A stretch of DNA of 64,000 nt from Candidatus Aminicenantes bacterium (GTDB lineage Bacteria; Acidobacteriota; Aminicenantia; S016-38): contig JAMOUJ010000006.1 of assembly GCA_027068075.1 (NCBI GenBank), positions 462,359-526,358 on the forward strand. The letters are read 5' to 3'. The notes under the pieces are model-generated. The model did not search any database, was not told the DNA's origin, and saw only the letters and a list, made by a program, of their open reading frames with translations. The position numbers and the translations under genes are program-made. Below are positions 7,701-49,994 of the stretch, piece by piece. The stretch's first letter is position 1; each line of letters starts with the position of its first letter.

Positions 7701-7785
7701 GACAACCTCCTGCTCTAATCTTAACAAAATTTTTCACAAGAGGGAGATTTTAGTTTCGAGGCAACTTCAATAGAGTTGCAGAGTA

Positions 7786-23809: not shown

Positions 23810-24877
23810 ATGAAGGGATTTGACGCCGGGCGCCTGCTGGGGATCTTAATGGTTGTGGTCTTCGGAGGTATTTTGACTTCAGGCGAATGGTTGAAGGAAA
23901 TCGGGAAAATCGGCGGAGGTGGAGACCATTATGAGTTTTTCATGATAACGAGCGTGGATCTTGATAAGGATGGAAATATTTATGTGGCGGATTCAAAGGG
24001 TAGGTTTATAAGGAAATATTCAAAAAATGGTAAGTTTTTAAAAGAAACGGGAAAAATGGGAAGAGGGCCGGGTGATTTTATGGGTCCCCTGGATCTGACG
24101 CTGGGTAATAATAAAATTTTCGTTCTGGATGGAGGGAATAGAAGAATAGCAATTTACGATAAAGAACTGAAAAGAAAGCCTCAATATATAAAAATAACTG
24201 AGGAATTAGGGTATCCAACTAATGTATTTTTCATGAATAATCTCCTTTATCTATCGCTAATGCTGAACCTTGACCCTAATAAAAACGATAACAGAATAGT
24301 TGGCATAACTCCTGAATCCAGATTTAAGATAATTTATGCTTTTTTCAACCATTTTCCTGATTATTATAAGAGGACCGAAAACGAATTACAGATGGCAATG
24401 TACATGGGCTATTTGTTCCTGAAGGTGGCCCTGGATAAAAATAGAAAGGAAATCGTATCGTGCTACATGCATCCTGGGGAAAAAGTTAACTTGTATTATT
24501 ACAACTATCAGGGTAAATTTATTAAAAAACAATCCTTCACATTGTTAAAAGGATATCAATTCCCTAAATTCCTCCTGAAGTATCCCAAGCGGTATCCGAA
24601 AAAATACACATTCCTTCAAATTGATTCAATTCGTTATTATAAAGACAAATATGTTCTTTTACACTATCTTATCTCAAGAATAACGAAATCCGGGAGCGAT
24701 AAAAACTCAGAGAGCACCGCTTACATTGCTGTGATAGATACGGAGAGTGGGAAAATAATAGGGAAGTATAGGGTCCCTTCTGGGTTGAGAATCTTCAAAG
24801 TAAAGGGAAACTATTCGTACGGAAAGGACTTTAACGACGATGCTGAGGGTGTTAACATTTACGAAATTCGCTTTTGA
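23810..24877 (+). CDS. 6-bladed beta-propeller protein, paralog 2 (A+T-rich copy)
   Basis: Motif GRGPGDFMGPLDLTLGNNKIFVLD, N-terminal TM, and GGGAG RBS. Codon usage is visibly more A/T-rich than in neighbouring genes. Confidence 0.65.
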   Translation: MKGFDAGRLLGILMVVVFGGILTSGEWLKEIGKIGGGGDHYEFFMITSVDLDKDGNIYVADSKGRFIRKYSKNGKFLKETGKMGRGPGDFMGPLDLTLGNNKIFVLDGGNRRIAIYDKELKRKPQYIKITEELGYPTNVFFMNNLLYLSLMLNLDPNKNDNRIVGITPESRFKIIYAFFNHFPDYYKRTENELQMAMYMGYLFLKVALDKNRKEIVSCYMHPGEKVNLYYYNYQGKFIKKQSFTLLKGYQFPKFLLKYPKRYPKKYTFLQIDSIRYYKDKYVLLHYLISRITKSGSDKNSESTAYIAVIDTESGKIIGKYRVPSGLRIFKVKGNYSYGKDFNDDAEGVNIYEIRF

Positions 24878-35925: not shown

Positions 35926-35934
35926 TGATATAAT
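35926..35934 (+). promoter_or_regulatory. Extended -10 element TGATATAAT upstream of hsdM
   Basis: TGnTATAAT match 68 nt upstream of the GTG at 36002. Confidence 0.3.
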
Positions 35935-36001: not shown

Positions 36002-37780
36002 GTGGAGTTACCTCAATGGCTTAAAAGTAGATACGAAACTCTTTGGGAAGCCTTCGGAAGCAAGAAGTTCAGGCCAGAAGATGCCTTGAAGGTTATTCGT
36101 GAAAAAGACTTGGACATCTCGGAAGAAGGACTAATTGTGGTTCTTTCAGAACTTCGCAAAAGAGGATGGGTTAAGGTAGAACCCGACCCTCAAGATGCCC
36201 GTAAGAAATACTATATTCTCATGCCACCTGAACCCCAAATCTCTCTTTTTCCGGAAGAGGCTCCCAAAAAACTTACGAGGGCGGAACTTGAAGGGCTTCT
36301 TAAAAAAGCAGCAGACCTTATAAGAACGAGGGTTGATTATACCTTCATCCTGATTCTTCTTTTCTATAAAAGGATAAGCGACAAATGGAAGGCAGAATTT
36401 GATGAGGCTTATAAGGAAGCTCTTGCTGATGGCCTGAGCGAAGAAGAAGCCCTTCAGGAGGCGAAAAACTCCATCTATCATGACTTTGACATTCCCGAAG
36501 AATACCTCTGGGACGAGTTAAGAAAGGACCCGCAGCGACTTCCTGAAAACTTCTCCAAAGCCATGAAAGCTATGGCCGAGAGGAATCCCGAACTTCGCGA
36601 TGTTTTTGAAACCATAGACTTCGTTCAGTTTACCTCCAACAGGGAAAACGCCGAGATACTTCGCCAGCTCGTGGAACTTTTCAGTTCCCATTCCCTTAAA
36701 GAAGTCTCACCGGATATTTTGGGGGACGCATATGAATGGATACTCCGCTATTTTGCTCCTCAAAAGGCTAAGGAGGGAGAGGTTTACACCCCAAGGGAAG
36801 TTATAGAGCTTATGGTGAGGATATTAGACCCGAAACCTGGCCAAAGCATTTACGACCCTGCATGCGGTTCAGCAGGAATGCTTATCATTTCCTACAAGCA
36901 TGTGGAGAAATCCCACGACCGCGAAGGTGCAGACAGGCTTTTCCTTTACGGACAGGAAGCCAATCACAAAACCTTGGCCCTCGCCAAGATGAACCTTTAC
37001 ATTCACGACATAAGGAACGCAAAACTGGCCCAGGGAGATACCCTTCTTTATCCAAAGTTTAAAAAGGGCCAGAGCCTTCAAACCTTTGACTTCGTAATAG
37101 CAAATCCCCCCTGGAACCAGGACGGATACGGGGAGGAAGTCCTGAAAAAGGGAGAACTTTGGAGGGAAAGATACACCTTCGGATTTACAACCCGCCAATC
37201 AGCGGATTGGGCGTGGATCCAGCACATGCTCGCCTCAGCTAAAGACGACGGCAAAGTGGCCATAGTCATTGACAATGGAGCGCTTTTCAGGGGAGGAAGA
37301 GAGCGGGCCATAAGAAAAGCAGTCCTTGAAGAGGACCTTTTAGAGGCGGTCATTCTTCTTCCGGAAAAACTCTTCTACAACACCGGAGCACCAGGGGCCA
37401 TAATGATATTTAATAAGGCAAAGCCTCCTGAGAGAAGGGGTAAAGTTCTATTTATAAACGCCAGCAGAGAATTTCGTCAGCATCCGGAAGTAAGAAAACT
37501 CAATCAACTTGCCCCTGAAAACATAGAAAAGATAACAGAAGCTTACAGAAAATTTTCAGAGGAAGAGGGCTTCTCAAGGGCAGTTCCAATAGAAGAAATA
37601 AGAGAAAACGACTATAACCTCAATGTAACCCTTTATGTATTCCCCGTGGAAGAGCAGGAAGAGATAGATGTTGCGAAAGAATGGGAGGAACTTCAGAGTT
37701 TGGAGCAAAGGTATTCGGAACTGAAAAACAAGATAAAAGGTTATCTGGAAGAGATGGAGTATTTTAAACATAAGGAGTAA
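36002..37780 (+). CDS. hsdM: Type I R-M DNA methyltransferase subunit HsdM with an N-terminal wHTH-like extension
   Basis: N6-MTase motifs DPACGSAGML (motif I) and NPPWNQ (motif IV). HsdM_N-like helix region starts near aa 95. GAGGAGG RBS before the GTG. Confidence 0.9.
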   Translation: MELPQWLKSRYETLWEAFGSKKFRPEDALKVIREKDLDISEEGLIVVLSELRKRGWVKVEPDPQDARKKYYILMPPEPQISLFPEEAPKKLTRAELEGLLKKAADLIRTRVDYTFILILLFYKRISDKWKAEFDEAYKEALADGLSEEEALQEAKNSIYHDFDIPEEYLWDELRKDPQRLPENFSKAMKAMAERNPELRDVFETIDFVQFTSNRENAEILRQLVELFSSHSLKEVSPDILGDAYEWILRYFAPQKAKEGEVYTPREVIELMVRILDPKPGQSIYDPACGSAGMLIISYKHVEKSHDREGADRLFLYGQEANHKTLALAKMNLYIHDIRNAKLAQGDTLLYPKFKKGQSLQTFDFVIANPPWNQDGYGEEVLKKGELWRERYTFGFTTRQSADWAWIQHMLASAKDDGKVAIVIDNGALFRGGRERAIRKAVLEEDLLEAVILLPEKLFYNTGAPGAIMIFNKAKPPERRGKVLFINASREFRQHPEVRKLNQLAPENIEKITEAYRKFSEEEGFSRAVPIEEIRENDYNLNVTLYVFPVEEQEEIDVAKEWEELQSLEQRYSELKNKIKGYLEEMEYFKHKE

Positions 37781-37783
37781 AAA

Positions 37784-39178
37784 TTGGACGAGAAGGAACT
37801 TCAATTGATCCTTGAAAGCGGAGAGGGATATAAAATAGAGTTCAAAGAGAGTGTTACCGGAATAGATAAAGATATGGTAGCCTTTGCTAACTCTGCGGGT
37901 GGAAGGATATTTATAGGAATAACAGACGATGGAGAAATAAAGGGTGTTAAGATTACCAACAAGTTGAAATCCCAAGTTCAAGATATTGCCAACAATTGTC
38001 AGCCACCCGTAAATATCCTGATGGAAGAATTTAGAAATATCCTTATTGTAGAGGTAAGAGAAGGAGAGGACAAACCATATAAGTGTTCATCTGGATTTTA
38101 TATTAGAGTTGGCCCCAACTCCCAAAAACTGAGCAGAAACGAGATAATAGAGTTTTTTAAATCTGAGGGAAAAATTCGTTTTGATGAACTTGTTAATCTA
38201 AAATTTGATTACAGAAAGCACTTTGACCGTAAGAAGTTTGAGAAATTCTTAAAATTGGCTGGAATCTCTAAAGTGCTTAGTATTCCTTCAATATTGATAA
38301 ATTTAGGAGTAGCAGAAAAACAGGAAGGCAAGCTTATTTTCAATAATGCGGGTATTTTATTCTTTGCCAGAAACCTTAACGATATATATTTCCACACCGT
38401 TGTAACTTGTGCATTATATAAAGGCACAGAGAAGGTAAATGTTCTTGATAGAAAAGATTACAACGAGGATATAGTGAGCAATGTGGATATGGCTATGAAT
38501 TTCCTTAAAAATTATATTCCGGTAAAATACGAAATCACAGGTGAACCAAGGAGAAAGGAAATTCCTGAGATTCCCTATGAAGCGCTGAGAGAGGCCGTAA
38601 TCAATGCAGTGGTCCACAGGGATTATTTTGAGAAAGGAGCCAATGTGATGGTGGAAATATTTGACGATAGAATAGAAATCTCGAATCCAGGGGGACTTGT
38701 TAAAGGCCTTAAACCAAAGGATTTTGGCAAAAAGAGCGTTTTAAGAAACCCTCACATCGCCAGCCTGTTTCATAGAATAGGGTATATAGAAAAAATGGGA
38801 ACAGGCATAAACAGAATGAGGAAACTTCTGAGAGAAGCCGGACTTCCTGAGCCGGAATTTGAGTTTGATACATTTTTCACAGTTACCTTCAGGAGACCAA
38901 TTAGGAAAAATGTCGGAGTAAATGTCGGAGTAAATGTCGGAGTAAAAATAGGACTAAAAGGGAAGCGGCTTGAGCGAGTTAACACGATGCTTGAGATACT
39001 TAAAAGAGAAGAAATTTTGAATATAACTCAGCTCGCAAAAATGTTTGGAGTCTCTGAAAGAACCATAGAAAGAGATGTAGAATTTTTAAAGAAAAAAAGA
39101 CTCATTGAATTTGTCGGTCCACCAAAAACTGGAAAATATGTGCTTACCGAAAAGGGCAAAAAACTATGGGAGGAGTAA
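37784..39178 (+). CDS. AlbA_2 (Schlafen-like) / HATPase_c_4 / C-terminal wHTH protein
   Basis: AlbA_2 motif EGYKIEFKES...AFANSAGGRIFIGITDDGEIKGV, REAVINAVVHRDY...ISNPGGL, and a C-terminal HTH ITQLAKMFGVSERTIERDVEFL. Confidence 0.75.
   Translation: MDEKELQLILESGEGYKIEFKESVTGIDKDMVAFANSAGGRIFIGITDDGEIKGVKITNKLKSQVQDIANNCQPPVNILMEEFRNILIVEVREGEDKPYKCSSGFYIRVGPNSQKLSRNEIIEFFKSEGKIRFDELVNLKFDYRKHFDRKKFEKFLKLAGISKVLSIPSILINLGVAEKQEGKLIFNNAGILFFARNLNDIYFHTVVTCALYKGTEKVNVLDRKDYNEDIVSNVDMAMNFLKNYIPVKYEITGEPRRKEIPEIPYEALREAVINAVVHRDYFEKGANVMVEIFDDRIEISNPGGLVKGLKPKDFGKKSVLRNPHIASLFHRIGYIEKMGTGINRMRKLLREAGLPEPEFEFDTFFTVTFRRPIRKNVGVNVGVNVGVKIGLKGKRLERVNTMLEILKREEILNITQLAKMFGVSERTIERDVEFLKKKRLIEFVGPPKTGKYVLTEKGKKLWEE
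38909..38944 (+). repeat. Perfect 3 x 12-bp tandem repeat AATGTCGGAGTA (encodes NVGVNVGVNVGV)
   Basis: Read directly. It lies in the linker before the C-terminal wHTH of the AlbA_2 protein. Confidence 0.95.
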
Positions 39179-39225
39179 ATGGGCCAAATGAGTCAAGGAT
39201 GGGTAAAAAATGGAAAAAGGAGAAA

Positions 39226-40809
39226 ATGAACAATAAAGAAAGAAAAAATTTGGAAAATTACTATCAGCAGTTAATGAAGGTGGAGAACTGGGAGAATATT
39301 CCGATAGAAAAAGCCTTAAACCTTTTAGGGGTGTTGATAGACATTTCTTTAGACTTAAAGAGACCAGAAGGTTTGCAAAAAGCGCTAAATCTTTCAAAGG
39401 AGCTCGAGAAGAGAAAAGGTATTTCTTCAGAGCAAAAAGCTCTTTTGTATTATTTTGTTTCTAATGCTTGGTCAAATTTAAAATGCGTTAAAGAAAAAAA
39501 CTCTTCTGAAAATTGGAACTGGAGAGCAAAAGAAATTGGGAATTCATTACTTTATCTTAGGCGATGTATAAAAGAAGAAGGGTTCAAGAAACTTCCTTCG
39601 ATAAGAAAAGCCCAGATCTATACAAATTTAGGAAACACATTCAGTGAAATAGGTCGCTCTGTAGAATCTATCGAATATTTCGATAAGGCTTTAAAAATAT
39701 TCCCAAATTTTCCTATGGCGCTGGGAAATAAAGGTGAGGCACTTTTAAGTTTGGCTGGAATTCTGTATGATCCTTGTCATCGAGAAGTTTTATTAAGACA
39801 TGCATATGAGAATTTGGACAAAGCTTTGTCTTATTCTCAAAAATACCAAATTCGTGATAGTGCTAAAATCGAGTTTGAAAAAACATTAAAAAAAATCGAA
39901 GAATTTCCCTTCCAATGTGGAAACCAAAATATAAATCTAAATAATTTTTCTCTGGGTGACTCTATCGAAGAAATATCTTATAGGAAATGGGCTTTAGAAC
40001 ATAGACTTTTCCTCAATCCTTTAAATGATATTGGCTCCTATAGTCTTGCAGCGAGAGATGTCCTTACTACCCCATCTATAATTGTTAGGGAAGGTGAGGG
40101 TCCATATTATCACGGATTTTATAATCAAATGAAGCAGGAATTTGTATCAGCTCGATATCTTTATTATGAAGGTATTAACTCTTATGAACCGCATTTCTCC
40201 GATAGAGAAGTCTTACTTTATAATACATTAGATTATCCCGTATATTCCTTTTCAGCTGAAAAGATTAAAATAGCATTTAGAATGGTTTATTCTATTCTTG
40301 ACAAGCTATCCTACTTCCTCAATGATTATTTAAGACTGAATATAAATGAAAGACGAGTAAGTTTTAAGTCATTTTGGTATGAAAAACAAGATAGACAAAA
40401 AGGTCTTAGAAAAGAATTTGTAAATCGTCCTAATTGGCCATTGCGAGGTTTATTTTGGTTAAGTAAGGATCTATTTGAAAGCACTCCAGGATTTAAGGAA
40501 TATTTAGAGCCAGAAGCGCAAGAGCTTCATAAAGTTCGGAATTGCCTTGAGCATAGATATCTTAAATTGCATTCTGAAGAATGGCCGAGATTACAAAAAA
40601 ATGGCTTTTTTATAGACCACTTAGCATTTTCAATGAGCCGTTTTGATTTTGAGGCGAAGGCACTCAAACTTTTGAAATTAGTCCGTTCGGCTTTGATTTA
40701 TCTAAGCTTAGCTATACATGTAGAAGAATGCTTAAGAAATAGAAATTTAAAGTCCTCAACAATTGTGTCAATGCAACTGGATGTTTGGAAAGATGAGTGG
40801 AAAATTTAG
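39226..40809 (+). CDS. TPR-repeat protein with a C-terminal HEPN domain (Rx4H; LA2681-like by recollection)
   Basis: TPR-like IYTNLGNTFSEIGRSVESIEYFDKALKIFPNFPMALGNKGEALL and HEPN motif HKVRNCLEHRY. AAGGAG RBS before the ATG at 39226; alternative upstream ATGs at 39166 and 39199. Confidence 0.65.
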   Translation: MNNKERKNLENYYQQLMKVENWENIPIEKALNLLGVLIDISLDLKRPEGLQKALNLSKELEKRKGISSEQKALLYYFVSNAWSNLKCVKEKNSSENWNWRAKEIGNSLLYLRRCIKEEGFKKLPSIRKAQIYTNLGNTFSEIGRSVESIEYFDKALKIFPNFPMALGNKGEALLSLAGILYDPCHREVLLRHAYENLDKALSYSQKYQIRDSAKIEFEKTLKKIEEFPFQCGNQNINLNNFSLGDSIEEISYRKWALEHRLFLNPLNDIGSYSLAARDVLTTPSIIVREGEGPYYHGFYNQMKQEFVSARYLYYEGINSYEPHFSDREVLLYNTLDYPVYSFSAEKIKIAFRMVYSILDKLSYFLNDYLRLNINERRVSFKSFWYEKQDRQKGLRKEFVNRPNWPLRGLFWLSKDLFESTPGFKEYLEPEAQELHKVRNCLEHRYLKLHSEEWPRLQKNGFFIDHLAFSMSRFDFEAKALKLLKLVRSALIYLSLAIHVEECLRNRNLKSSTIVSMQLDVWKDEWKI

Positions 40810-40824
40810 AAATGGGGGTATAAT

Positions 40825-41622
40825 ATGGAGAAAGGTAAAGCAATTCAGCTTTTAGAGAAATGCATTCTTGAAATCGAAGAATTAAAAAAAGTAAGATTTA
40901 ACTCACCTCAATTTACTGCTTGGAAAAGCAAAACAAATTCTCTTTTAGAGAAAATATTTGGAAAAAACTCAAGACAATTGGAAGATTTTGGAAAAATCTT
41001 TAAACATCAACAGGCAGGAGCTATAATTATGATAGCTGCTCAGAAACCAGCGTATAAGATTCATGAGATAGAAATCCAAGCTTTAGAAGAGGCAAAAGCA
41101 TTATTAAATTCTTTTAAAGAACAATTGATTGATTTTGGAGAGATTGAAAAGACACAAAGGAAATTCAACGATGTCATTTCAGAGCTTGAGAGGATTTTTG
41201 ATCGATTTTATATTATTGCTCGCCAAATAGAAAAAAGACATAACAATAGGCCTACTTTAGAAATTATTGATGAATACGATGTTCAGGACTTATTACATGC
41301 GCTTCTCAAATTGTTTTTTGACGATATAAGAAGGGAAGAGTGGACTCCAAGCTATGCCGGAGGAGCGGCAAGGATGGATTTTTTGCTTAAAAATGAAAAA
41401 ATAGTCATAGAAGTGAAAAAGACAAGGAAAGGTTTAACTGATAAGCAGATAGGTGACCAGTTGCTTCAAGATATTGAGAGATATAAAAAACACTCTGATT
41501 GCGACTATTTAATATGTTTTGTGTATGACCCGGAAGGTAGAATTGGCAATCCTCGTGGGTTGGAAAAAGACCTTAGCAAAGAAGAAGATGGATTTAGGGT
41601 ATCAGTTTATGTTAGGCCATGA
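40825..41622 (+). CDS. Hypothetical protein with a C-terminal PD-(D/E)XK-like nuclease core
   Basis: Pattern E-YDVQDLL ... RMDFLL ... IVIEVKK ... YLICFVYD fits an alpha-beta-beta-beta restriction-endonuclease core (E...D...ExK). The stop overlaps the hsdS start (ATGA). Confidence 0.5.
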   Translation: MEKGKAIQLLEKCILEIEELKKVRFNSPQFTAWKSKTNSLLEKIFGKNSRQLEDFGKIFKHQQAGAIIMIAAQKPAYKIHEIEIQALEEAKALLNSFKEQLIDFGEIEKTQRKFNDVISELERIFDRFYIIARQIEKRHNNRPTLEIIDEYDVQDLLHALLKLFFDDIRREEWTPSYAGGAARMDFLLKNEKIVIEVKKTRKGLTDKQIGDQLLQDIERYKKHSDCDYLICFVYDPEGRIGNPRGLEKDLSKEEDGFRVSVYVRP

Positions 41623-42908
41623 GGAATGAAAAACATAGAGCAACTTCATCAAGACTTTTCTCGATTCCGAATGATTGGATTCTTACAAAATTAGGGGCAT
41701 GTGTGGAAATAAGAGGGTCTAAAAGACTTTCTTTTAAAGATAAGAAGATTCCCTTTATTCCTATGGAGTTAATCCCGACTGAGAGTGTGTATGTTAAATA
41801 TGAATTAAAGAAGCCCCAAGAAATTAAAAGTTTTACATATTGTGAAGCTGGAGACCTGCTCTTAGCAAAGATCACACCTTCCTTAGAGAATGGAAAACAA
41901 GGTATTGTTCCTCAAGATATACCTAATGGTTTTGCTCTGGCTACCACCGAAGTTTTCCCTCTTCAATCAAAGAAAGAAAAAATTCTAAATTTATTCCTTT
42001 TCTATCTTCTTAAGACTCCAAGGTTCAGAAATGTGCTTATTACCTCCATGATAGGGACTACTGGAAGACAGAGGGCATCTAAAGAGGCCCTCTTATCCCT
42101 CCCCATCCCCCTCCCTCCACTCTCCGAGCAAAAGAAGATTGCTGAGATTCTTTCCACTGTGGATGAGGCCATAGAGGTTACGGATAAGGAGATTGAAAAG
42201 GCGGAGAGCTTGAAACGCGGGCTTATGCAGGAGCTTTTGACTAAGGCGATAGGGCACAGCAGGTTTAAGAAAACCGAGGTGGGAACGATACCTGAGGAGT
42301 GGGAGGTGGTGAGAGTAGAAAAAATTTTTGATGTTTATGGAGGGACAACTCCTTCTACTAATAACCCTTCTTTTTGGGATGGAGAGATTCTCTGGGTAAC
42401 TCCTACCGATATAACAAAATTAGGAAATAGAATATATTTAAATGACACTGAAAGAAAAATTTCTGAGGAAGGATTAAAAAAGTCCAATCTAAAATTATTG
42501 GAACCTTTTACTATTTTATTGACTACAAGAGCAACAATAGGTTACGCAGCTTTATCTCCTAAGCAACTTACGATAAATCAAGGAATGACAGCTTTTATCC
42601 CCTTGAAGAAGGACCTTATCAATCCTGTTTTTTATATTTACTGGTTCTCTAAAATTAGAGATTTTTTGCTTCAATTAGGAGGGGGAAGTACTTTCAAAGA
42701 GGTTTCGAGGACCACTCTAAAAAAGCTATATGTTCCCCTCCCCCCTCTTCCAGAACAGAAAAAAATAGCCGAGATTCTTTCCTCTGTTGACGATTTCATA
42801 GAAAGCTTGAGAGCACGCAGGGAAAAGCTGGTAAAATTAAAGCAGGGATTAATGGAAGACCTATTGACGGGCAAAAGGAGGGTTAAGATAGATGCCGAGG
42901 ACACCTGA
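41619..42908 (+). CDS. hsdS: Type I R-M specificity subunit HsdS
   Basis: Two target-recognition domains, each followed by a conserved helix repeat (LPIPLPPLSEQKKIAEILSTVDEAIE and LYVPLPPLPEQKKIAEILSSVDDFIE). Confidence 0.9.
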   Translation: MRNEKHRATSSRLFSIPNDWILTKLGACVEIRGSKRLSFKDKKIPFIPMELIPTESVYVKYELKKPQEIKSFTYCEAGDLLLAKITPSLENGKQGIVPQDIPNGFALATTEVFPLQSKKEKILNLFLFYLLKTPRFRNVLITSMIGTTGRQRASKEALLSLPIPLPPLSEQKKIAEILSTVDEAIEVTDKEIEKAESLKRGLMQELLTKAIGHSRFKKTEVGTIPEEWEVVRVEKIFDVYGGTTPSTNNPSFWDGEILWVTPTDITKLGNRIYLNDTERKISEEGLKKSNLKLLEPFTILLTTRATIGYAALSPKQLTINQGMTAFIPLKKDLINPVFYIYWFSKIRDFLLQLGGGSTFKEVSRTTLKKLYVPLPPLPEQKKIAEILSSVDDFIESLRARREKLVKLKQGLMEDLLTGKRRVKIDAEDT

Positions 42909-45888
42909 AGCGCATCAAGTTGAGAAATTTCTCATCCATAAGTTAATAGAGCAGGGCTGGAGGTATGTTCCAGGGGATGAACTTCCAAGGGAGGATTTCC
43001 GCCAGCCCCTCCTTGAGAAGGACCTTATAAAGGCTCTGGAGAGAATAAACAAAACAGAAGCCACTGAAAAGGATTTTCTTAGGGCAATTGCAAGGCTAAA
43101 AGGGGAAGGTTTTGGTCCAGAGGGCCATAAGAAGGTTCTTCGGTATTTTAAGTATGGCATCCCAATAAAGCTCGAAAAAACCGGAGTTGTGGAGTTCTTA
43201 GAGCTTTTTGATTACAAGAATCCGCAGAACAACGAGTTTATAGTTTCCAACCAGGTAATCTATCATGGGGGAAATCCTATAAGAACCGATATAATGCTCT
43301 ATGTAAATGGAATTCCCCTTGTGGATATAGAATGCAAGAACCCTGAAGACCCCTCCATCAGCTGGAGAAACGCTTACAAGCAGATAAAGTATTATGAAAG
43401 CACCGTTCCTGACCTTTACCGTTATGTGCAGATAGGGGTTGCAGCAGAGGCCACCGCCAGATATTTCCCGATAGTTCCCTGGCGAGAAGATGTAACGGTT
43501 TACCTCTGGCGTGAGGATGGAAAAGAGCCTCTTGAAGCCCTATCTCTCATGCTTTCGCCAGCAAGGCTTCTGGATATGATAAGAAACTTTATTTTCGTAA
43601 GGGAGGAGCATGGGGAGATAACCAAAGTGATGACCAGATACATGCAGTATAGGGCTGTAAACAAAATTGTGGACAGAGTGCTTGCAAACTTGAGGGGCGA
43701 GGAGGATAAAAATCGTGGTCTTATATGGCACTGGCAGGGAAGCGGAAAGACTCTCACCATGATCTTTGCAGCCCACAAACTGTTTTATGCCGAAGAAATG
43801 GAAAATCCCACGCTGTTTTTTGTTGTTGACAGATTGGACCTTGCAGAGCAGCTTCAGGGAGAATTCGCTGCCCTGGATATGCCTTTTTCTGCTGAGACTG
43901 TGGAATCCATTGACCATCTAAAGAAGATAATCTCTCACGACGACTTTAAGGGAAAAAGGGGAATCTTTATAACCCTTATTCAGAAATTTTCTCCGGAGAA
44001 ACTAAGGGAAGTTAAGGAGTTTATGTCCTCAAAGGGAAGCGGAACCATAGCGGAACGGAAAAATGTTGTTCTTTTCATAGACGAAGCCCACAGGAACCAA
44101 TATGGTGTGCTGGCAGCCCAGATGAAGGATATATTCAAGAATGCCTTTGCCTTCGCATTTACAGGAACGCCCATATCCAAGAATCAGCGGGATACTTACT
44201 TGGAGTTCAGCTATCCGCCTGAGGAACTATACCTTGACCGTTATTTCATAACCGACTCCATAATGGACGGCTTTACAGTGAGAATCGTCTATGAGCCGAG
44301 ACTTACAGGCGAGGTTCACCTGAGAAAAGAACTTCTGGACCTTTTTATAAACTCAACCCTTGAAGAGCTGCCTGAGGATGAAAGGAAGATAGTGGAGCCG
44401 GAACTTAGGAGAAGAATAAATATCATAAATACCTTCTTTGAGGACCCTGAGAGGATAGATAAAATCTCTGAAGACATAGCTCAGCATTTTCTTGAAAATT
44501 TAGATGGAAAATTCAAGGCTATGGTTGTGGTAGGGAGCAGGAAAGCGTGTCTTATGTATAGGGACAGGCTTAGAAAACTCCTTCCGGAAAATTATGTTGA
44601 GGTTGTAATGACTGCCAGCCCGGGCGAGGAAGAGGGAAAAGGGGAATATGTAAGTGAAATAGCAGAGAAGTATGGCAGCAGCGATGTCTCAAGTGCAATT
44701 AAAACTGTGGTAACCAAATTCAAAGAGGAAGAATACCCCAAGATTCTTATCGTGACGGAAATGCTTCTTACAGGTTTTGATGCCCCGATTCTTCAAACCA
44801 TGTATCTTGACAAACTTCTAAAGGAACATCGTCTTCTTCAAGCAATAGCCAGGACAAACAGACCTTATAAGGGGCTCAAAGAAGCCGGGCTCATAATAGA
44901 CTATGTAGGAATATTGAAGGAGTTTAAGAGGGCATTTGCAATTTACAATGAAGAGGACATAGAAGGGGCACTCTGGAATGTGAAAGACCTTGAGACCGAC
45001 TTTGAAAAGGAACTGATGGAAATTCTGAACTTTTTCCAGGGTCTGGAGAGAAAATTTGAAAGGGAAACCTTTGTCTCCGCAGTGGAGATTTTAACCGGCG
45101 AAGATGGGAAGGCGAAGGACTTTATCGCTAAATACTGGAGGCTTAGAAAGCTCTTTGAACTTTTGGGCTCCTCCCCGGACAAGTTAAAATATCTTGACGA
45201 TTATAAGTGGTTGTCAGCGGTCTATTCCTATTACAGAAAACTGGTGGATAGGGAAGAGGAGAAGCCGGATGTCAGTAAATATTTTAGAAAGACCATAGAA
45301 CTTATTCATCAAACCACAGAAATAGAGAAGATAGAAAAGGACCTTCCGCCAATTGTCATAGATGTGGACTCTATAGAGGATATTGTTAAAAACGCTAAAT
45401 CAGAGAAGGAAAAAGCCGCCACGGTGATTTTTACATTGAGAAACATAATCCTTGTGGAAAAAGAGAGAAAGCCCGTTTACGAATCTCTGGTAGATAAAGT
45501 GGAAAGATTGGTGAAGATGTGGCAGCAGAGGGCGAAAGATTACAGGAAATTATATGAGGAAGGTCTTGGAATTCTGAAAGAAAAAAGAAATATAGATAAG
45601 AGGCAAAAAGAACTTGGGCTTTCGGACCTTGAATATTCCATTTTGTTAACAGTGGAGGAAAAGATTGGGGAGGAAAAGGGAATTGAAAACGAAATAAGAA
45701 AACTCGTGGAGGAAATTGGAGCAGACCTATTTGAGGGCTGGCTCGGTCAGGTAACGGTGAGGAGGAAAGTGGAAAGAAAGATAAGGAGATTTGCCAGAAG
45801 GCTTAAAAAGGAATATGGATTGAGTTTTGAGGAGATGGAAGAACTTTACAGGAAAATCTGGGAAAGGGTGAAAAACTATGGAATTTGA
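42892..45888 (+). CDS. hsdR: Type I R-M restriction/translocase subunit HsdR
   Basis: N-terminal nuclease region (TDIMLYVNGIPLVDIECK) and SF2 motifs HWQGSGKT, FIDEAHRNQ, FTGTP and QAIARTNR; 998 aa. Confidence 0.9.
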   Translation: MPRTPEAHQVEKFLIHKLIEQGWRYVPGDELPREDFRQPLLEKDLIKALERINKTEATEKDFLRAIARLKGEGFGPEGHKKVLRYFKYGIPIKLEKTGVVEFLELFDYKNPQNNEFIVSNQVIYHGGNPIRTDIMLYVNGIPLVDIECKNPEDPSISWRNAYKQIKYYESTVPDLYRYVQIGVAAEATARYFPIVPWREDVTVYLWREDGKEPLEALSLMLSPARLLDMIRNFIFVREEHGEITKVMTRYMQYRAVNKIVDRVLANLRGEEDKNRGLIWHWQGSGKTLTMIFAAHKLFYAEEMENPTLFFVVDRLDLAEQLQGEFAALDMPFSAETVESIDHLKKIISHDDFKGKRGIFITLIQKFSPEKLREVKEFMSSKGSGTIAERKNVVLFIDEAHRNQYGVLAAQMKDIFKNAFAFAFTGTPISKNQRDTYLEFSYPPEELYLDRYFITDSIMDGFTVRIVYEPRLTGEVHLRKELLDLFINSTLEELPEDERKIVEPELRRRINIINTFFEDPERIDKISEDIAQHFLENLDGKFKAMVVVGSRKACLMYRDRLRKLLPENYVEVVMTASPGEEEGKGEYVSEIAEKYGSSDVSSAIKTVVTKFKEEEYPKILIVTEMLLTGFDAPILQTMYLDKLLKEHRLLQAIARTNRPYKGLKEAGLIIDYVGILKEFKRAFAIYNEEDIEGALWNVKDLETDFEKELMEILNFFQGLERKFERETFVSAVEILTGEDGKAKDFIAKYWRLRKLFELLGSSPDKLKYLDDYKWLSAVYSYYRKLVDREEEKPDVSKYFRKTIELIHQTTEIEKIEKDLPPIVIDVDSIEDIVKNAKSEKEKAATVIFTLRNIILVEKERKPVYESLVDKVERLVKMWQQRAKDYRKLYEEGLGILKEKRNIDKRQKELGLSDLEYSILLTVEEKIGEEKGIENEIRKLVEEIGADLFEGWLGQVTVRRKVERKIRRFARRLKKEYGLSFEEMEELYRKIWERVKNYGI

Positions 45889-46426
45889 ATACAAAGTTTT
45901 TTACAGAAAGGTAAAATACGCCCGGGTGGAAATAAGGTCAGGAGAGTTGAGGGTAATTGTTCCCTTTGGAGTTAAAGCCGATGCCGTTGTAGAGAGGCAT
46001 CGTAGGTGGATAGAGAAAAAGATGAGGGAGATAGAGAGGGTAAAGGCAGAGGCCGAGAAACTTAAACCTGTGGAAAGAACAGAGGCGGAGTTTAGACGCT
46101 TGATGAGGGATTTTATATGCGAAGCCGAGAGGGCTTTTGGGGTAAAATCCAAGAAGGTGTTATTCAGGAAGATGAAAACAAGGTGGGCGAGTTGCTCAAG
46201 CAAGGGTAATATAACGGTGAATCGCCTGGCGAAAGTGCTTCCCGACCATCTCCTCCGTTACATCGCTTTCCATGAGGTTGCTCATTTAATACATAAGAAT
46301 CATGGTAAAGCCTTTCGTGACCTTCTTTCCAGATTTTTCCCCGACCACCGTCGCATTGATTTACAGCTCCAGCGGTGGTGGTTCGTGGTAAGTCCAAAAT
46401 TTTATGGAGGGAAAGATGGCTACTGA
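45878..46426 (+). CDS. YgjP-like (DUF45/WLM) zinc metallopeptidase
   Basis: HEVAHLIHKNH motif. Overlaps the hsdR stop by 11 nt. This family is commonly linked to hsdR. Confidence 0.75.
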   Translation: MEFEYKVFYRKVKYARVEIRSGELRVIVPFGVKADAVVERHRRWIEKKMREIERVKAEAEKLKPVERTEAEFRRLMRDFICEAERAFGVKSKKVLFRKMKTRWASCSSKGNITVNRLAKVLPDHLLRYIAFHEVAHLIHKNHGKAFRDLLSRFFPDHRRIDLQLQRWWFVVSPKFYGGKDGY

Positions 46427-46970
46427 GATTTTAATTGAGCCAGTATTTGAAAACGAAGAACTCTTGGAAGCATTTCCTGAGTTTTCTCGGGTGGCCTTTA
46501 CTTTGATAGCAAAATCTGGAGCCTCATCTTCTTTTAAACTTAAATTGAGCCAGACAGGAGGCGAAACGGTAGAGCAAATAAAGATTAAGAAAATGCGAGT
46601 GCTGAGCAAAGATATAAGATATGAAGTAACATTTGGAAAGGACTTTGTAGTTCATTTTCCTCCAGGAGAAACCGAAATATTGCTTCAAACATCTTACAAA
46701 ATAGTCTTTCCTGTACCTGGCGTTTACTGGCTGGAATTAAAAGTAGAACCGGAAAGTGTAGAAACAAAACAGAGGATGCTAAATGGAGGAGTAGGTCGGG
46801 GGTGGAGTAAAGGTGAGGAAAAGAACTCTTTAAGACAGCCCATACTCGTCATTGATGGAGTCAATCTCGAACAAATAAAAATAAATAGGGATCTCAGGTA
46901 TTTAACCTATGCAATTCTCGCATTGACTGTGGTAAGCGTGATAACGATGTTACTGTCATTTCTTTTTTAG
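46416..46970 (+). CDS. Hypothetical tail-anchored membrane protein
   Basis: GGAGGG RBS before the ATG at 46416, which overlaps the ygjP end. A single C-terminal TM (LTYAILALTVVSVITMLLSFLF). No recognisable domain. Confidence 0.5.
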   Translation: MATEILIEPVFENEELLEAFPEFSRVAFTLIAKSGASSSFKLKLSQTGGETVEQIKIKKMRVLSKDIRYEVTFGKDFVVHFPPGETEILLQTSYKIVFPVPGVYWLELKVEPESVETKQRMLNGGVGRGWSKGEEKNSLRQPILVIDGVNLEQIKINRDLRYLTYAILALTVVSVITMLLSFLF

Positions 46971-47166
46971 AGTATGTGTTATAATATTAAGTGTGTGATT
47001 GGAGGGTGTTAATAGATGCATGCATTATAAGATGCGCAAGGGAGCATATAGAGAAACGGGTGGCTGGATGTTTCTAATTACGAAAATAGAACCAAGAAAC
47101 TTAATGAATAAGAGAATTAGGACAGAGAGTATCTTTAATGACAATAAAACAAGAAGGGGGTAAAAG

Positions 47167-48027
47167 ATGTCAAGAATAGGTAAATTTATGGTGACTTTAG
47201 CCCTGCTTTCTTTTCTATCTGGAAAAAGCGTGAAAATTGCTGTGGTAGGGATAACAAATGTCTCACAGTTTGGCCAACCATTCCGTTCAGAAAGGGCTCT
47301 TGAAAGTTTAGGAATTACACAAGACCTATTATCTTCCTATGCAGAAGAGGTTTTAACTACGCTTATAGCATCTCAAACTCCTTACATTGTAGTAGAAAGA
47401 AGAAAAGTCCTTACTCTAATAAAAGAGCAAGATTTTAATCGCTCTGGCCTGGTTAATAATTCTGATATGGCAGTAAGGTTAGGAGAACTCTTAGGGGCGA
47501 ATTATATAGTAACGGGATCCATTGTAAATATTGGAAGGGAAAGGAGAAGGTTTCGAGGGTATGGAATCTCTACTGAAAGTATAGTCTATTTTGTAGAGGC
47601 TTCACTTAAAATGTTAGATGTCAATACCGGAGCTATAGTTAAGGCTGGATTATATGATGCCGAGTTTAGGGTTCAAGACACAGGTTTTAGCCAAAGTTCT
47701 AATACATTAGCAGTAAGAAAACTACTTAAAATAGCCTTTCAAAAATTTGTGCAAGATTTAAATAATTACTATGCCTCCTCCTATGGAAACAAAGGCAAAA
47801 AAGAAAGACGAAACCGAGTATTAAGAATAGATGTTATTTCTGAGCCTGAAGGAGCGGAGGTGGAAGTTGATGGTATATATATGGGAAGCACACCATGTAA
47901 AATAGAAGTAGAAAGGGGAAAGATTGTATCCGTCTCCATTGCATTAGAAGGATATGAAACTTGGAAGAAAAAAGTCAAAGCCATAGAAGGGTTAAGAATA
48001 AAAGTAAAGTTAAAGAAAAAAGAGTAG
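47167..48027 (+). CDS. CsgG/LpoB-like domain plus C-terminal PEGA domain protein, exported
   Basis: KIAVVGITN ... YIVVERRKVLTLIKEQDFNRSGLV ... LGANYIVTGSI (CsgG-like), and ISEPEGAEVEVDGIYMGSTPCKIEV (PEGA). Confidence 0.6.
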   Translation: MSRIGKFMVTLALLSFLSGKSVKIAVVGITNVSQFGQPFRSERALESLGITQDLLSSYAEEVLTTLIASQTPYIVVERRKVLTLIKEQDFNRSGLVNNSDMAVRLGELLGANYIVTGSIVNIGRERRRFRGYGISTESIVYFVEASLKMLDVNTGAIVKAGLYDAEFRVQDTGFSQSSNTLAVRKLLKIAFQKFVQDLNNYYASSYGNKGKKERRNRVLRIDVISEPEGAEVEVDGIYMGSTPCKIEVERGKIVSVSIALEGYETWKKKVKAIEGLRIKVKLKKKE

Positions 48028-48275: not shown

Positions 48276-48779
48276 ATGGGAAGTTTATCGACTTGGCAAA
48301 TAATTGGGGCAATAGGGTCTATTATAACTGCCATTTTTGTCATGTTAACTTACTTTCTCCAGAGAAAAGGAATAAAAACCTCCCTTGAAGTTTCGGTTAA
48401 TGTGAGAGATATTATGTCTTTTTCTTCTGGAACGGCTCAAAAGAATGAGAAAGGACCTTTTGTCTTTATAATTGTCAGAAACCCAGGGTTGAGGGATGTA
48501 AAAATAGTTCGGATTTCCTTTTATTTTTCAAGGTTAGGTAAAAAGAAATTATTTATGTATTCCCATATCAAAAGTGAGCAAGGTTTACCGTGTATAATAA
48601 AAAGTGGTCAAGATTGTAAATTTTGGTTCCCTGTCTCTTTAGTTAAAGAATTGGCGAAGCAAGAAAATCTCTCCTTTCCAACAAAAATAAGGGTTGTCAT
48701 AGCAGATGCTTTAGAGGAAAAATTTGAAAGCAATTCATTGAAAATAGAAGCCTCAGAGGAAAGAAACCACGGAAAATAA
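48276..48779 (+). CDS. Hypothetical N-terminally anchored membrane protein
   Basis: AAGGAG RBS and N-terminal TM WQIIGAIGSIITAIFVMLTYF. No recognisable domain. Confidence 0.5.
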   Translation: MGSLSTWQIIGAIGSIITAIFVMLTYFLQRKGIKTSLEVSVNVRDIMSFSSGTAQKNEKGPFVFIIVRNPGLRDVKIVRISFYFSRLGKKKLFMYSHIKSEQGLPCIIKSGQDCKFWFPVSLVKELAKQENLSFPTKIRVVIADALEEKFESNSLKIEASEERNHGK

Positions 48780-48906: not shown

Positions 48907-48948
48907 TTTTACCCTACAAGCGGGCAAAAATCAAGTTTTGTAGGGTAA
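48907..48948 (+). repeat. 42-bp imperfect palindrome H, copy A (TTACCCTACAA ... TTGTAGGGTAA)
   Basis: 37/42 identical to 49953-49994. Abuts the stop end (48950) of the nucleotidyltransferase gene. Confidence 0.9.
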
Positions 48949-48949
48949 G

Positions 48950-49945
48950 TCATTGGAGAAGGTCCTCCAGGGATTCTACGAAAGAACTTACCAGGGGAAG
49001 TTTTTCCTTAGTTTCCTTCAATGAAGTTTTTATTCGCCTTTTCCAGGAGGGAGGGAAGGTCTTCCAAAGCCTCAGGAGTTTTTCCTTCTCCTGAGGATTC
49101 TGCAAAATGTATCTACCCACATAAACCGCCTGTTTCAGGTCCTTCTCGGCCTTCCCTGGCTCCTTCCTCCTTCTGGAAACCAAAATTTTGTGGAAGAAGA
49201 ATGCCGATGGTGAAGGAAGTAATATCTTAAGTCCGCGGGCGACCTTTAAAGTTATGCTATCCGAAAGTAATATATCCATGAACCTTAAAATCTGAGGAGT
49301 TACTTTTAGTTCCTTTATAAAAGGAGGCTTGCTTCTTCCCCTTCCCCTCTGGGGCGCGAGAAATTCTATTTTCATCCCATATCCGGTAAAGTAAAGTGAG
49401 CCGTCAGGATTGAAATTTTCTGAAAATCCCAGATCCTTAAGAAGCCCTGAAAGGTTAAACTCCTTTCCCTTATAGGGCAGGGGGATGAGAATGTCCAGGT
49501 CCCTGGTGGTTAGGGGATAATGGGGAACCGAGAGGTATTTCTGATAAAGCCAGAAACACCATGTGCCTATAACCTCTATGCCTTCTTCCCAAAGGCCGCT
49601 TTTGGTAAATTCTCTAAAAAGTTTCTCTATGGGCTGGAGAAAATGAACTTCCCCACTGGGTTTTTCTCTTAACAGTTTTAATGCTTGTCTTACTTCTTTT
49701 AGTTCGGCCTCCAGTTTTTTTCTTTTCTTCAAAGCCTTTAAAAGCTCCTGGGGGACTTCTTTTCCTATATATTCATCAACGAGTTTCCCTTCTTTTCTAT
49801 ATTGGAGATAATAGTAAATCCTATTTCCTTTTTTCTTTTTTTTGATTCTCCCCTTAGGAAGCGACCCAAGGGCGGAAATAATTGAGCGCTCCTGCTGTCT
49901 GTAAAATTCAACCGTTTCATCAAGCATGTGTTTAAGGTCTTTCAC
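48950..49945 (-). CDS. Nucleotidyltransferase-fold protein (GSU2403/AbiEii-like by recollection)
   Basis: Minimal NTase pattern G(T)WCFW...TTRDLDILIP, an N-terminal basic region with IYYYLQYRKEGKLVDEYIG, and a GTG start at 49945. Confidence 0.55.
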   Translation of the reverse strand: MKDLKHMLDETVEFYRQQERSIISALGSLPKGRIKKKKKGNRIYYYLQYRKEGKLVDEYIGKEVPQELLKALKKRKKLEAELKEVRQALKLLREKPSGEVHFLQPIEKLFREFTKSGLWEEGIEVIGTWCFWLYQKYLSVPHYPLTTRDLDILIPLPYKGKEFNLSGLLKDLGFSENFNPDGSLYFTGYGMKIEFLAPQRGRGRSKPPFIKELKVTPQILRFMDILLSDSITLKVARGLKILLPSPSAFFFHKILVSRRRKEPGKAEKDLKQAVYVGRYILQNPQEKEKLLRLWKTFPPSWKRRIKTSLKETKEKLPLVSSFVESLEDLLQ

Positions 49946-49952
49946 ATTATAA

Positions 49953-49994
49953 TTTTACCCTACCAATAAGCAAAAATCAAGTTTTGTAGGGTAA
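49953..49994 (+). repeat. 42-bp imperfect palindrome H, copy B
   Basis: Begins 7 nt beyond the GTG start of the nucleotidyltransferase gene. A TATAAT (minus strand, 49951-49946) lies between the two. Confidence 0.9.

Follow-up and report, generated by a model that had tools for sequence, protein, structure and literature searches.

Three stacked putative nuclease genes in a variable cargo slot of a type I restriction-modification operon from Candidatus Aminicenantes

The window analysed here is a stretch of 64,000 nucleotides from a Candidatus Aminicenantes bacterium (assembly GCA_027068075.1, contig JAMOUJ010000006.1, positions 462,359 to 526,358), and the subject is a type I restriction-modification (R-M) operon in which three co-oriented non-R-M genes, termed A, B and C, lie between hsdM and hsdS. 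The hsdM/hsdS junction of this operon lineage is a hypervariable cassette slot that holds mostly defence-type cargo, and A, B and C are not one system. The explanation that we favour, and which we consider likely, is that of a layered defence, in which an acquired type I R-M operon and three autonomous, stacked nuclease effectors would be co-expressed and co-transferred.

A cargo slot in a lineage of type I R-M operons

The sister set consisted of 80 metagenomic loci with HsdM orthologs 63-74% identical over full length, across which the backbone hsdM-hsdS-hsdR-YgjP is conserved. The gap between hsdM and hsdS is bimodal in these loci (n = 59), with 28 gaps of at most 150 bp, five of 0.15-1 kb and 26 of more than 1 kb, the largest being 8.6 kb. 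As 28/59 sister operons are thus empty and 26/59 contain 1-8.6 kb of diverse cargo, the slot is variable, and a test set by an earlier sequence-only reading of the window, whether the insert is a variable cassette, is thereby answered in the affirmative. Cargo is also found between hsdS and hsdR, at a second slot that is filled in 22 of 33 sister operons (loci L089-L168; DUF6602, HEPN and SEC-C/HEAT proteins are examples), while in the window there is none at this position and the two genes overlap by 17 nt (42892-42908). The 137 cargo open reading frames (ORFs) of at least 90 aa group into approximately 80 sequence clusters. Fic/DOC proteins were counted at 13 loci, AbiJ_NTD4 at eight and the SLFN_AlbA_2-HATPase_c_4 architecture at seven, the window included; other cargo comprises ORF6N, TIR and HEPN proteins, KAP NTPases, an SMC-like ATPase, a reverse transcriptase and Shedu SduA, and large proteins are also present, such as a 1308-aa SIR2 protein and a 1554-aa DEAD/MZB helicase. 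The combination found in the window, namely a Schlatpase-HTH protein, an LA2681 TPR-HEPN protein and a PF18742 nuclease, occurs in no other sampled locus. The identity of the window to the sister loci is 63-74% for hsdM and 41-56% for hsdR, as compared to 28-59% for hsdS, and this low hsdS identity fits a segment swap by homologous recombination between the hsd flanks.

Base composition and nested acquisition

The genes of the flanking chromosome have a GC content of 0.52 ± 0.045 and a GC content at third codon positions (GC3) of 0.64 ± 0.08. The corresponding GC/GC3 values of the hsd backbone are 0.45/0.47 for hsdM, 0.43/0.47 for hsdR and 0.45/0.50 for the YgjP-like gene, and those of the insert are 0.37/0.35 for gene A, 0.33/0.275 for gene B and 0.34/0.27 for gene C, with hsdS (0.39/0.37) intermediate between insert and backbone. 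The three GC3 strata indicate a nested acquisition, that is, a chromosome, an island acquired by it, and cargo that entered this island at a later stage. The sequence-only reading had taken the AT-richness of the insert as a sign of a separate origin, and this is supported by the GC3 of 0.27-0.35 and by TTA, which makes up 39-42% of the leucine codons of B and C as against 6-7% in hsdM, hsdR and the flanks; the low GC content is not, however, a property of the insert only, as the zone that lies below the chromosome throughout is wider and spans approximately 35.9-50.1 kb. No convincing att-like direct repeats were found flanking this island.

The three insert genes

Gene A (37784-39178, + strand), a "Schlatpase-HTH" gene, specifies a protein with Pfam matches to SLFN_AlbA_2 (PF04326; 1e-20) and HATPase_c_4 (PF13749; 1e-26) followed by a C-terminal winged helix-turn-helix (wHTH) of the DeoR/HTH_11 type, and it starts with a TTG codon preceded by an AAGGAG Shine-Dalgarno (SD) motif. 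The Schlafen (SLFN) and GHKL domains that define a Schlatpase are present in a single polypeptide and their key residues are retained, E14/E19/K21, E270/N274, N301-PGG and G339-T-G341 being invariant in seven orthologs of 23-49% identity, where the triad E14/E19/K21 was assigned by its spacing relative to E17/D22/K24 of CbCash, without structural alignment. Sequence searches of the PDB yielded just a marginal match to SLFN12 for the Schlafen domain (E~0.07) and, for the full-length protein, a match to the uncharacterised entry 3lmm only. Within gene A, an in-frame 12-nt tandem repeat (AAATGTCGGAGT, approximately three copies; 38909-38944) specifies the sequence (NVGV)x3 of the linker that connects the GHKL and wHTH domains, and this linker could change in length by slippage.

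Close relatives of gene A (60-72% identity) are located inside type I operons in six of seven independent contexts, the seventh adjoining Cas6. Their host operons carry another hsdR family (EcoEI_R_C type) and are arranged as hsdR-A-...-hsdS-hsdM or hsdR-hsdS-A-hsdM, with frequent 4-nt stop/start overlaps and often with further variable cargo after the gene. In the sister set, A-like genes directly follow hsdM in six loci. Locus L114 (2138-4935) presents the stack hsdM-A-AbiJ_NTD4-TIR-hsdS, and a Schlatpase-HTH gene comes first in L118 (11762-18189), where it is followed by an unannotated 292-aa ORF and the 1308-aa SIR2 protein, in L165 (11789-17025), where a KAP NTPase and a 582-aa protein follow, and in L204 (7001-14684), ahead of PDDEXK_3, GIY-YIG and AbiEi/AbiEii. 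The order in which A is first and variable effectors come after it recurs in both hsd families. This consistent embedding across unrelated hsd families suggests a coupling of A to type I R-M, and A appears to be the sole insert gene with a genomic behaviour that points to Hsd.

Gene B (39166-40809, + strand) is predicted to encode a TPR superhelix joined to a HEPN domain of the LA2681 family (Pfam HEPN_LA2681, PF18733, 2.4e-81, together with TPR matches), the product being 527 aa in length when counted from 39226. The HEPN_LA2681 match covers profile positions 4-204 of 204, and the sequence RNCLEH (R458..H463; nt 40537-40554), which is invariant in 22 homologs, corresponds to the Rx4H HEPN motif as RNxxEH, such that both the profile match and the conserved Rx4-6H of the LA2681 family are found in gene B. 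More than 1800 full-length homologs of approximately 520-530 aa were retrieved, and in an AlphaFold2 (AF2) model the TPR part is predicted with confidence over residues ~23-245. Genomic contexts of B were sampled at 80 loci from species-representative genomes of many bacterial phyla and of Methanothrix and Methanoculleus. A homolog of gene C was found near B at 0/80 of these loci and a homolog of gene A, a weak one, at 1/80; an hsdM-like gene is located within 10 kb of B at nine of the 80, with a full hsdMSR set in L033 only and on the opposite strand. All-against-all clustering of three genes on each side of B revealed no conserved neighbour at the 80 loci, and in a Pfam census of 120 proteins flanking B the sole recurrent theme was that of R-M-type methyltransferases (Eco57I 6, N6_Mtase 5, and others). 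The gene also occurs on 29 plasmids (annotated at NCBI as "LA2681 family HEPN domain-containing protein") and on three viral contigs, and one plasmid homolog adjoins a NACHT protein and integrases. Gene B was considered as a PrrC homolog and rejected, since no ATPase domain was detected with Pfam, NCBIfam or PADLOC and the gene is not obligately embedded. In the 2013 survey of HEPN proteins by Anantharaman et al. LA2681 is listed among "other families" as fused to TPR and in an operon with TPR, with no R-M or defence context and no experiments (PMC3710099), and a literature search on TPR-HEPN/LA2681 returned nothing beyond that survey.

Gene C (40825-41622, + strand) encodes a helical, DUF8371-like N-terminal domain and a PD-(D/E)XK nuclease domain (Pfam REase_DpnII-MboI, PF18742, 6e-61). 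The profile match, the core and the D...(D/E)xK motif of the PF18742 family are all present, D185...E196-x-K198 being invariant in 25 homologs, and the AF2 model (predicted local distance difference test, pLDDT, of 82) predicts a helical N-terminal bundle and an alpha/beta core at residues 150-265. A Foldseek comparison of gene C with the PDB gave nothing below E=1e-3, the best matches being weak PD-(D/E)XK domains, while in PADLOC it matched Aga_Helical-REase (1e-33) and, with its N-terminal part only, the candidate PDC-S35 (residues 1-119 on profile positions 1-116 of 264, 3e-9), with which it has this domain in common but not the remainder. The family of ~263-aa proteins to which C belongs is even larger than that of gene B. 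Its members are found beside a YhcG-type nuclease in Pasteurellaceae, beside a type IIG enzyme on a metagenome-assembled contig, among insertion sequence (IS) elements and toxin-antitoxin genes in Riemerella, and on 208 plasmids, most of them conjugative, and 22 viral contigs. With the window proteins as queries, neither B nor hsd genes were detectable near the sampled C homologs, nor was B or hsd found in 31 further C/B loci. The idea that B and C make up a conserved pair, or that the three genes are one system, was therefore rejected, given that C is absent from all of the B loci, that B has no conserved neighbour and that the 31 further loci provided no instance. Likewise, C was rejected as a type II enzyme of the DpnII type, as no Dam-type methylase is encoded beside it here or in the sampled contexts and PF18742 is its sole Pfam match (E<=0.01). 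Neither Detocs (DtcA/DtcB) nor prokaryotic Argonaute (pAgo) partners were found in the operon of the window or in the sampled C contexts. On Klebsiella pneumoniae plasmid NZ_CP132684.1 (L170), a C homolog at 6917-7711 is situated between two tandem filamentous-phage-like units (Zot, replication protein II/X, GspD), which suggests that it is accessory cargo of an inovirus-like element.

The R-M core and organization of the operon

On the + strand of the window the ORFs are ordered hsdM, gene A, gene B, gene C, hsdS, hsdR, a YgjP-like gene and ORF188 (36002-46970). The hsdM gene (36002-37780), for a type I N6-adenine DNA methyltransferase (Pfam N6_Mtase, 6e-114, and HsdM_N; PADLOC MTase_I, 3.5e-110), starts with GTG behind a GGAGGTG SD sequence and encodes the motifs DPACGS and NPPW. 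The specificity subunit gene hsdS (41619-42908) has two stretches matching Pfam Methylase_S, representing two target-recognition domains, and an internal 68-nt repeat (42108-42175 and 42735-42802) that encodes two conserved regions. The restriction/translocase subunit gene hsdR (42892-45888; TIGR00348, 9.5e-210; Pfam HSDR_N, SWI2_SNF2, ResIII and T1R_D3-like) specifies DIECK, GSGKT, DEAH and QAIAR. The features that define a type I R-M system at gene level, namely the HsdM motifs, an HsdS with two target-recognition domains and an HsdR with PD-(D/E)XK and superfamily 2 translocase domains, are accordingly found together, and because hsdM, hsdS and hsdR retain their diagnostic motifs the core looks functional and is apparently intact. 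HsdM also has an N-terminal extension of ~90 aa before the Pfam HsdM_N domain (residues 1-~95; 36002-36290) with a weak wHTH-like (MsvR) match; this extension, which 78 sister loci retain at ~44% identity, may serve in autoregulation or in the binding of a partner.

The YgjP-like gene (45878-46426, + strand; Pfam YgjP-like, 1e-29) encodes an HExxH metallopeptidase with a HEVAH motif. It directly follows hsdR in 28/28 sister operons with enough downstream sequence and is the fixed fourth gene of this hsd lineage; a limited literature search on a role of YgjP in type I R-M brought nothing to the surface. The last gene of the packed run, ORF188 (46404-46970, + strand), encodes a C-terminal transmembrane helix (hydrophobic stretch at residues 166-188), matches nothing in Pfam, PADLOC, NCBIfam or PHROG, has a GC3 of 0.35 and is not present in any of the 80 sister loci; this 188-aa ORF may be a further cargo gene, at the operon's 3' end.

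The junctions of the run are tight, as had been described on the basis of the letters alone. Gene A follows hsdM after 3 nt, and its SD motif can be seen in the sequence to overlap the hsdM stop. Genes A and B overlap by 13 nt if B starts at 39166 and are 47 nt apart if it starts at ATG 39226; the latter is more likely the true start, as homologs are 520-530 aa in length and align from residue ~28 and as its SD is better. A gap of 15 nt separates B from C, an ATGA overlap joins C to hsdS, and downstream of hsdR the YgjP-like gene and ORF188 begin with overlaps of 11 and 23 nt, respectively. A pattern search and inspection of the sequence located an extended -10 promoter-like element, TGATATAAT (35926-35934, + strand), upstream of hsdM, which we infer to be a candidate operon promoter. 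Just two such elements are present on the + strand in 35.4-47.2 kb, the other being TGTTATAAT (46977), which sits after the last ORF of the run. A consensus scan of the region for terminators on the + strand found two sites only (39429 and 43120), both weak and intragenic. The junction spacing, together with this layout of promoters and terminators, renders a single transcription unit from the hsdM promoter plausible, and the run is probably transcribed in this manner. Our analysis thus agrees with the sequence-only reading on every ORF coordinate that it gave (exact in the ORF map), on all of its domain calls (Pfam, NCBIfam and PADLOC) and on the identification of the locus as a type I R-M operon into which three non-R-M genes are inserted, while the one coupled unit that it had seen in the run is to be retained as a plausible inference.

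Evaluation of alternative explanations

The core of the proposed layered defence would be a four-gene type I operon of hsdM, hsdS, hsdR and the YgjP-like gene, situated in a horizontally acquired defence island and belonging to a widespread hsd lineage with two cargo slots (hsdM/hsdS and hsdS/hsdR) for other defence genes. The R-M enzyme would cut unmodified incoming DNA, the discrimination being based on methylation. Gene A would contribute a Schlafen RNase domain under the control of a GHKL ATPase and a wHTH, as a recurrent companion of type I R-M, and two solitary mobile genes would add a HEPN RNase of the LA2681 type with a TPR part as its sensor (gene B) and a PF18742 nuclease with its helical N-terminal domain as the regulatory or sensor module (gene C). 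The three cargo proteins would be latent and self-regulated until their own sensors detect infection, upon which they would cleave host or phage RNA or DNA as an abortive-infection back-up, and an anti-phage phenotype of the operon as a whole would be expected. A position within the operon would provide one promoter for all genes, and co-inheritance when recombination at the hsd flanks swaps the intervening segment. Since B and C stand alone in other genomes, each is most likely an autonomous effector of the abortive-infection type.

Several observations weigh against this interpretation. The constant first place of A could mean that it stands in some regulatory connection with the cargo behind it, which a model of three independent modules would overlook. 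For gene B, the HEPN half of the AF2 model is poor, with pLDDT <50 over residues 283-357 and 446-491, and given this half a Foldseek search with the model returned TPR proteins only; many neighbours of B are housekeeping genes such as those of tRNA synthetases, and its presumed role in defence derives from guilt-by-embedding and an association of ~10% with R-M methylases. In addition, 36 promoter-like matches were counted in the scanned region as against 25 ± 5 expected, many of them in the AT-rich insert, where internal promoters are possible, and co-transcription rests on spacing and on simple scans with a consensus that may not be that of the host.

In PrrC/EcoprrI, to which the sequence-only reading had compared the locus, an anticodon nuclease embedded in a type I operon is kept latent by its binding to the Hsd complex and becomes active in response to a phage anti-restriction peptide, and an integrated guard of this kind, in which the Hsd complex holds all three insert proteins latent and phage inhibition of R-M releases the nucleases, has in its favour that precedent (PMC3710099; bioRxiv 10.1101/2024.01.29.577857), the embedded position with junctions of the translational-coupling type, the consistent location of gene A in type I operons and the parallel stack of L114. 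We nonetheless regard it as very unlikely, for no other sampled locus has both B and C, either gene is only very rarely located inside a type I operon, B has no counterpart of the ABC-ATPase domain of PrrC, and PrrC, unlike B, is almost exclusively embedded (bioRxiv 10.1101/2024.01.29.577857). The layout therefore justifies the comparison but gene B does not behave as a PrrC-like partner of R-M, with an hsdM-like gene nearby in ~10% of its loci, and the idea of a guard could hold for gene A alone. Nor do the three insert genes form a unit; the consistent location in type I operons that would point to a functional coupling is seen for A only. Very little probability is likewise attached to the insert genes being selfish passengers, that is, mobile toxin-like or addiction genes which have settled in a recombination-prone spot that tolerates insertions and are of no use in defence. 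The wide mobility of B and C on plasmids and viral contigs and beside integrases or IS elements, their GC3 far below that of the hsd backbone and the mostly heterogeneous neighbourhoods of B would be in keeping with such a notion; against it, the catalytic motifs of A, B and C do not vary among homologs, a constancy that implies selection for activity, known defence families (Shedu, TIR, SIR2, reverse transcriptase and AbiJ-like genes among them) occupy this slot in sister operons, no cognate antitoxin ORFs are evident, and the embedded genes tested by others were mostly defences (PMC11411939; bioRxiv 10.1101/2024.01.29.577857).

Two further alternatives concern single genes. Gene A may be chiefly a transcriptional regulator of the operon or its cargo, acting through its wHTH in the way of a C-protein and leaving B and C as the only effectors. 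Its DeoR/HTH_11-type wHTH, its invariable first position ahead of the variable genes in two hsd families and the source annotations as 'DNA binding domain-containing protein' accord with this; the idea is nevertheless quite unlikely, since orthologs of 23-49% identity have all kept the E-x4-E-x-K triad of the Schlafen domain as well as the ATP-binding motifs of the GHKL domain, and related SLFN-GHKL modules are ATP-driven tRNA nucleases (PMC13462974; bioRxiv 10.64898/2026.05.29.728809), although regulator and effector roles are not mutually exclusive. Gene C, for its part, belongs to a Pfam family named for DpnII/MboI restriction endonucleases, its PD-(D/E)XK motif is intact and one of its homologs adjoins a type IIG enzyme, all of which would suit a stand-alone restriction endonuclease, type II-like or modification-dependent and type IV-like, by which the type I system would reach a wider range of DNA targets, in place of an abortive-infection effector. 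TgvAB and BrxU are examples of enzymes with such a widening effect, and type IV enzymes embedded in type I operons constitute a precedent (PMC11411939). We hold this to be unlikely, because no cognate Dam-like methyltransferase is encoded beside C here or in the sampled contexts, the Pfam DpnII model is not among the matches at E<=0.01, no modified-base reader domain was detected, and the same nuclease domain is a triggered effector in Detocs and in Argonaute-associated proteins.

An extension of the layered defence, tentative and in our estimation doubtful as a whole, would make B a widespread single-gene abortive-infection system not recognised before and, jointly, A a dedicated companion or guard of type I R-M. 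In homologs from bacterial phyla and methanogens alike, recognition of a phage protein by the TPR superhelix of B would set the HEPN RNase free, while A would monitor the state or the DNA products of type I enzymes as a second, mechanistically different guard of the PrrC kind; a guard function of A would explain its constant first place in the cargo stacks of unrelated hsd families.

Relation to known systems

PrrC and RloF are established defence genes embedded in type I operons. The insert resembles PrrC/EcoprrI in that a HEPN gene lies between type I R-M genes, co-oriented, tightly packed and presumably latent until infection. It differs in that PrrC is an ABC-ATPase-HEPN fusion found almost exclusively in type I operons, whereas gene B is a TPR-HEPN protein of LA2681 without ATPase, which is solitary in ~90% of the 80 genomes and the genomics of which give no sign of Hsd dependence; gene B accordingly has neither of the two hallmarks of the PrrC/RloC type, the fusion and the near-exclusive type I location. 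The guilt-by-embedding study of Payne et al. (bioRxiv 10.1101/2024.01.29.577857), which reported 17,432 embedded genes of 3,231 families in Hma, BREX, DISARM and type I R-M loci, and the work on TgvAB in Vibrio VPI-2 (PMC11411939) describe the same phenomenon, variable defence genes inside a multi-gene defence operon. That defence genes can be embedded in type I operons is thus already established, and better documented than the sequence-only reading had assumed; the window is a new and unusually well-stocked case. It is set apart from the data of Payne et al. by the one hsd lineage to which it belongs, which has two slots and in which a YgjP-like gene is conserved in fourth place, and by a cargo combination of its own.

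The link of gene A to R-M has also been reported before (PMC13462974; bioRxiv 10.64898/2026.05.29.728809; bioRxiv 10.1101/2024.01.29.577857 supplement). Payne et al. list AlbA_2-HATPase_c_4-HTH as FAM_00002 among their embedded genes (bioRxiv 10.1101/2024.01.29.577857 supplement), no architecture was reported to be more common in a set of ~100,000 Schlafen proteins of prokaryotes than the Schlatpase with a short C-terminal HTH (bioRxiv 10.64898/2026.05.29.728809), and SLFN-ATPase-DNA-binding proteins were described as "tightly associated" with R-M, BREX and type I CRISPR (PMC13462974). Gene A shares with SLFN-pAgo and Cash the supradomain of SLFN_AlbA_2 and PF13749, the association with R-M and the E-x4-E-x-K spacing of the CbCash triad, but has no Argonaute, CARF/Csx15 or NACHT sensor. 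Cash cleaves tRNA upon activation by cA4 and relies on an E17-D22-K24 triad (PMC13462974, Nature Communications 2026), and ATP-driven oligomerisation with tRNA cleavage is known for SLFN-pAgo and Cash only (bioRxiv 10.64898/2026.05.29.728809; PMC13462974). Gene B is a full-length member of the LA2681 family (PMC3710099; PF18733) with its TPR fusion and conserved Rx4-6H, but differs from what was described for that family in being embedded in an R-M operon. Gene C has the same PF18742 family after a helical N-terminal region as the DtcC variants of Detocs, where PF18742 is an alternative effector, and as the Argonaute-associated "Helical-REase" models of PADLOC, which also contain this nuclease; in contrast to both it is a solitary protein of ~265 aa with no DtcA/B or Argonaute nearby.

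Three compositional strata, and a slot whose variability is demonstrable within a single hsd lineage, make this locus a clear natural instance of one defence nested within another. The family of gene B is widespread, has no model in PADLOC (v2), is not called by it and is worth testing as a defence. For the stand-alone Schlafen-GHKL-wHTH proteins, the strong embedding in type I operons irrespective of family suggests a real functional coupling to restriction enzymes.

Other features of the window

The window returned no tRNA and no Rfam matches. AddAB, CsgG, DUF1302 and the SD and extended -10 signals are indicative of a diderm bacterium, of metagenomic origin (ENA ERZ27262658). The low-GC island runs past the operon, and includes a CsgG/PEGA-domain lipoprotein gene (47167-48027), which is preceded by the extended -10 element at 46977, and a membrane protein gene without assigned family (48276-48779). 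Further downstream, two 42-nt direct repeats (48907-48948 and 49953-49994), 88% identical and each internally palindromic (TTACCCTACAA...TTGTAGGGTAA), closely bracket a nucleotidyltransferase gene (DUF6788/NTP_transf_8) on the minus strand at 48950-49945, so that this gene has the appearance of a small cassette between hairpin repeats. Upstream of the island, a lone low-GC gene at 23810-24877 (GC 0.37 as compared to 0.52 in its neighbours) encodes an NHL/beta-propeller-like product and may be another small acquisition. An AddA/AddB-like pair of chromosomal GC at 24956-30705 (UvrD helicase and PD-(D/E)XK; PDDEXK_1/Cas4-like) is probably a host recombination-repair helicase-nuclease.

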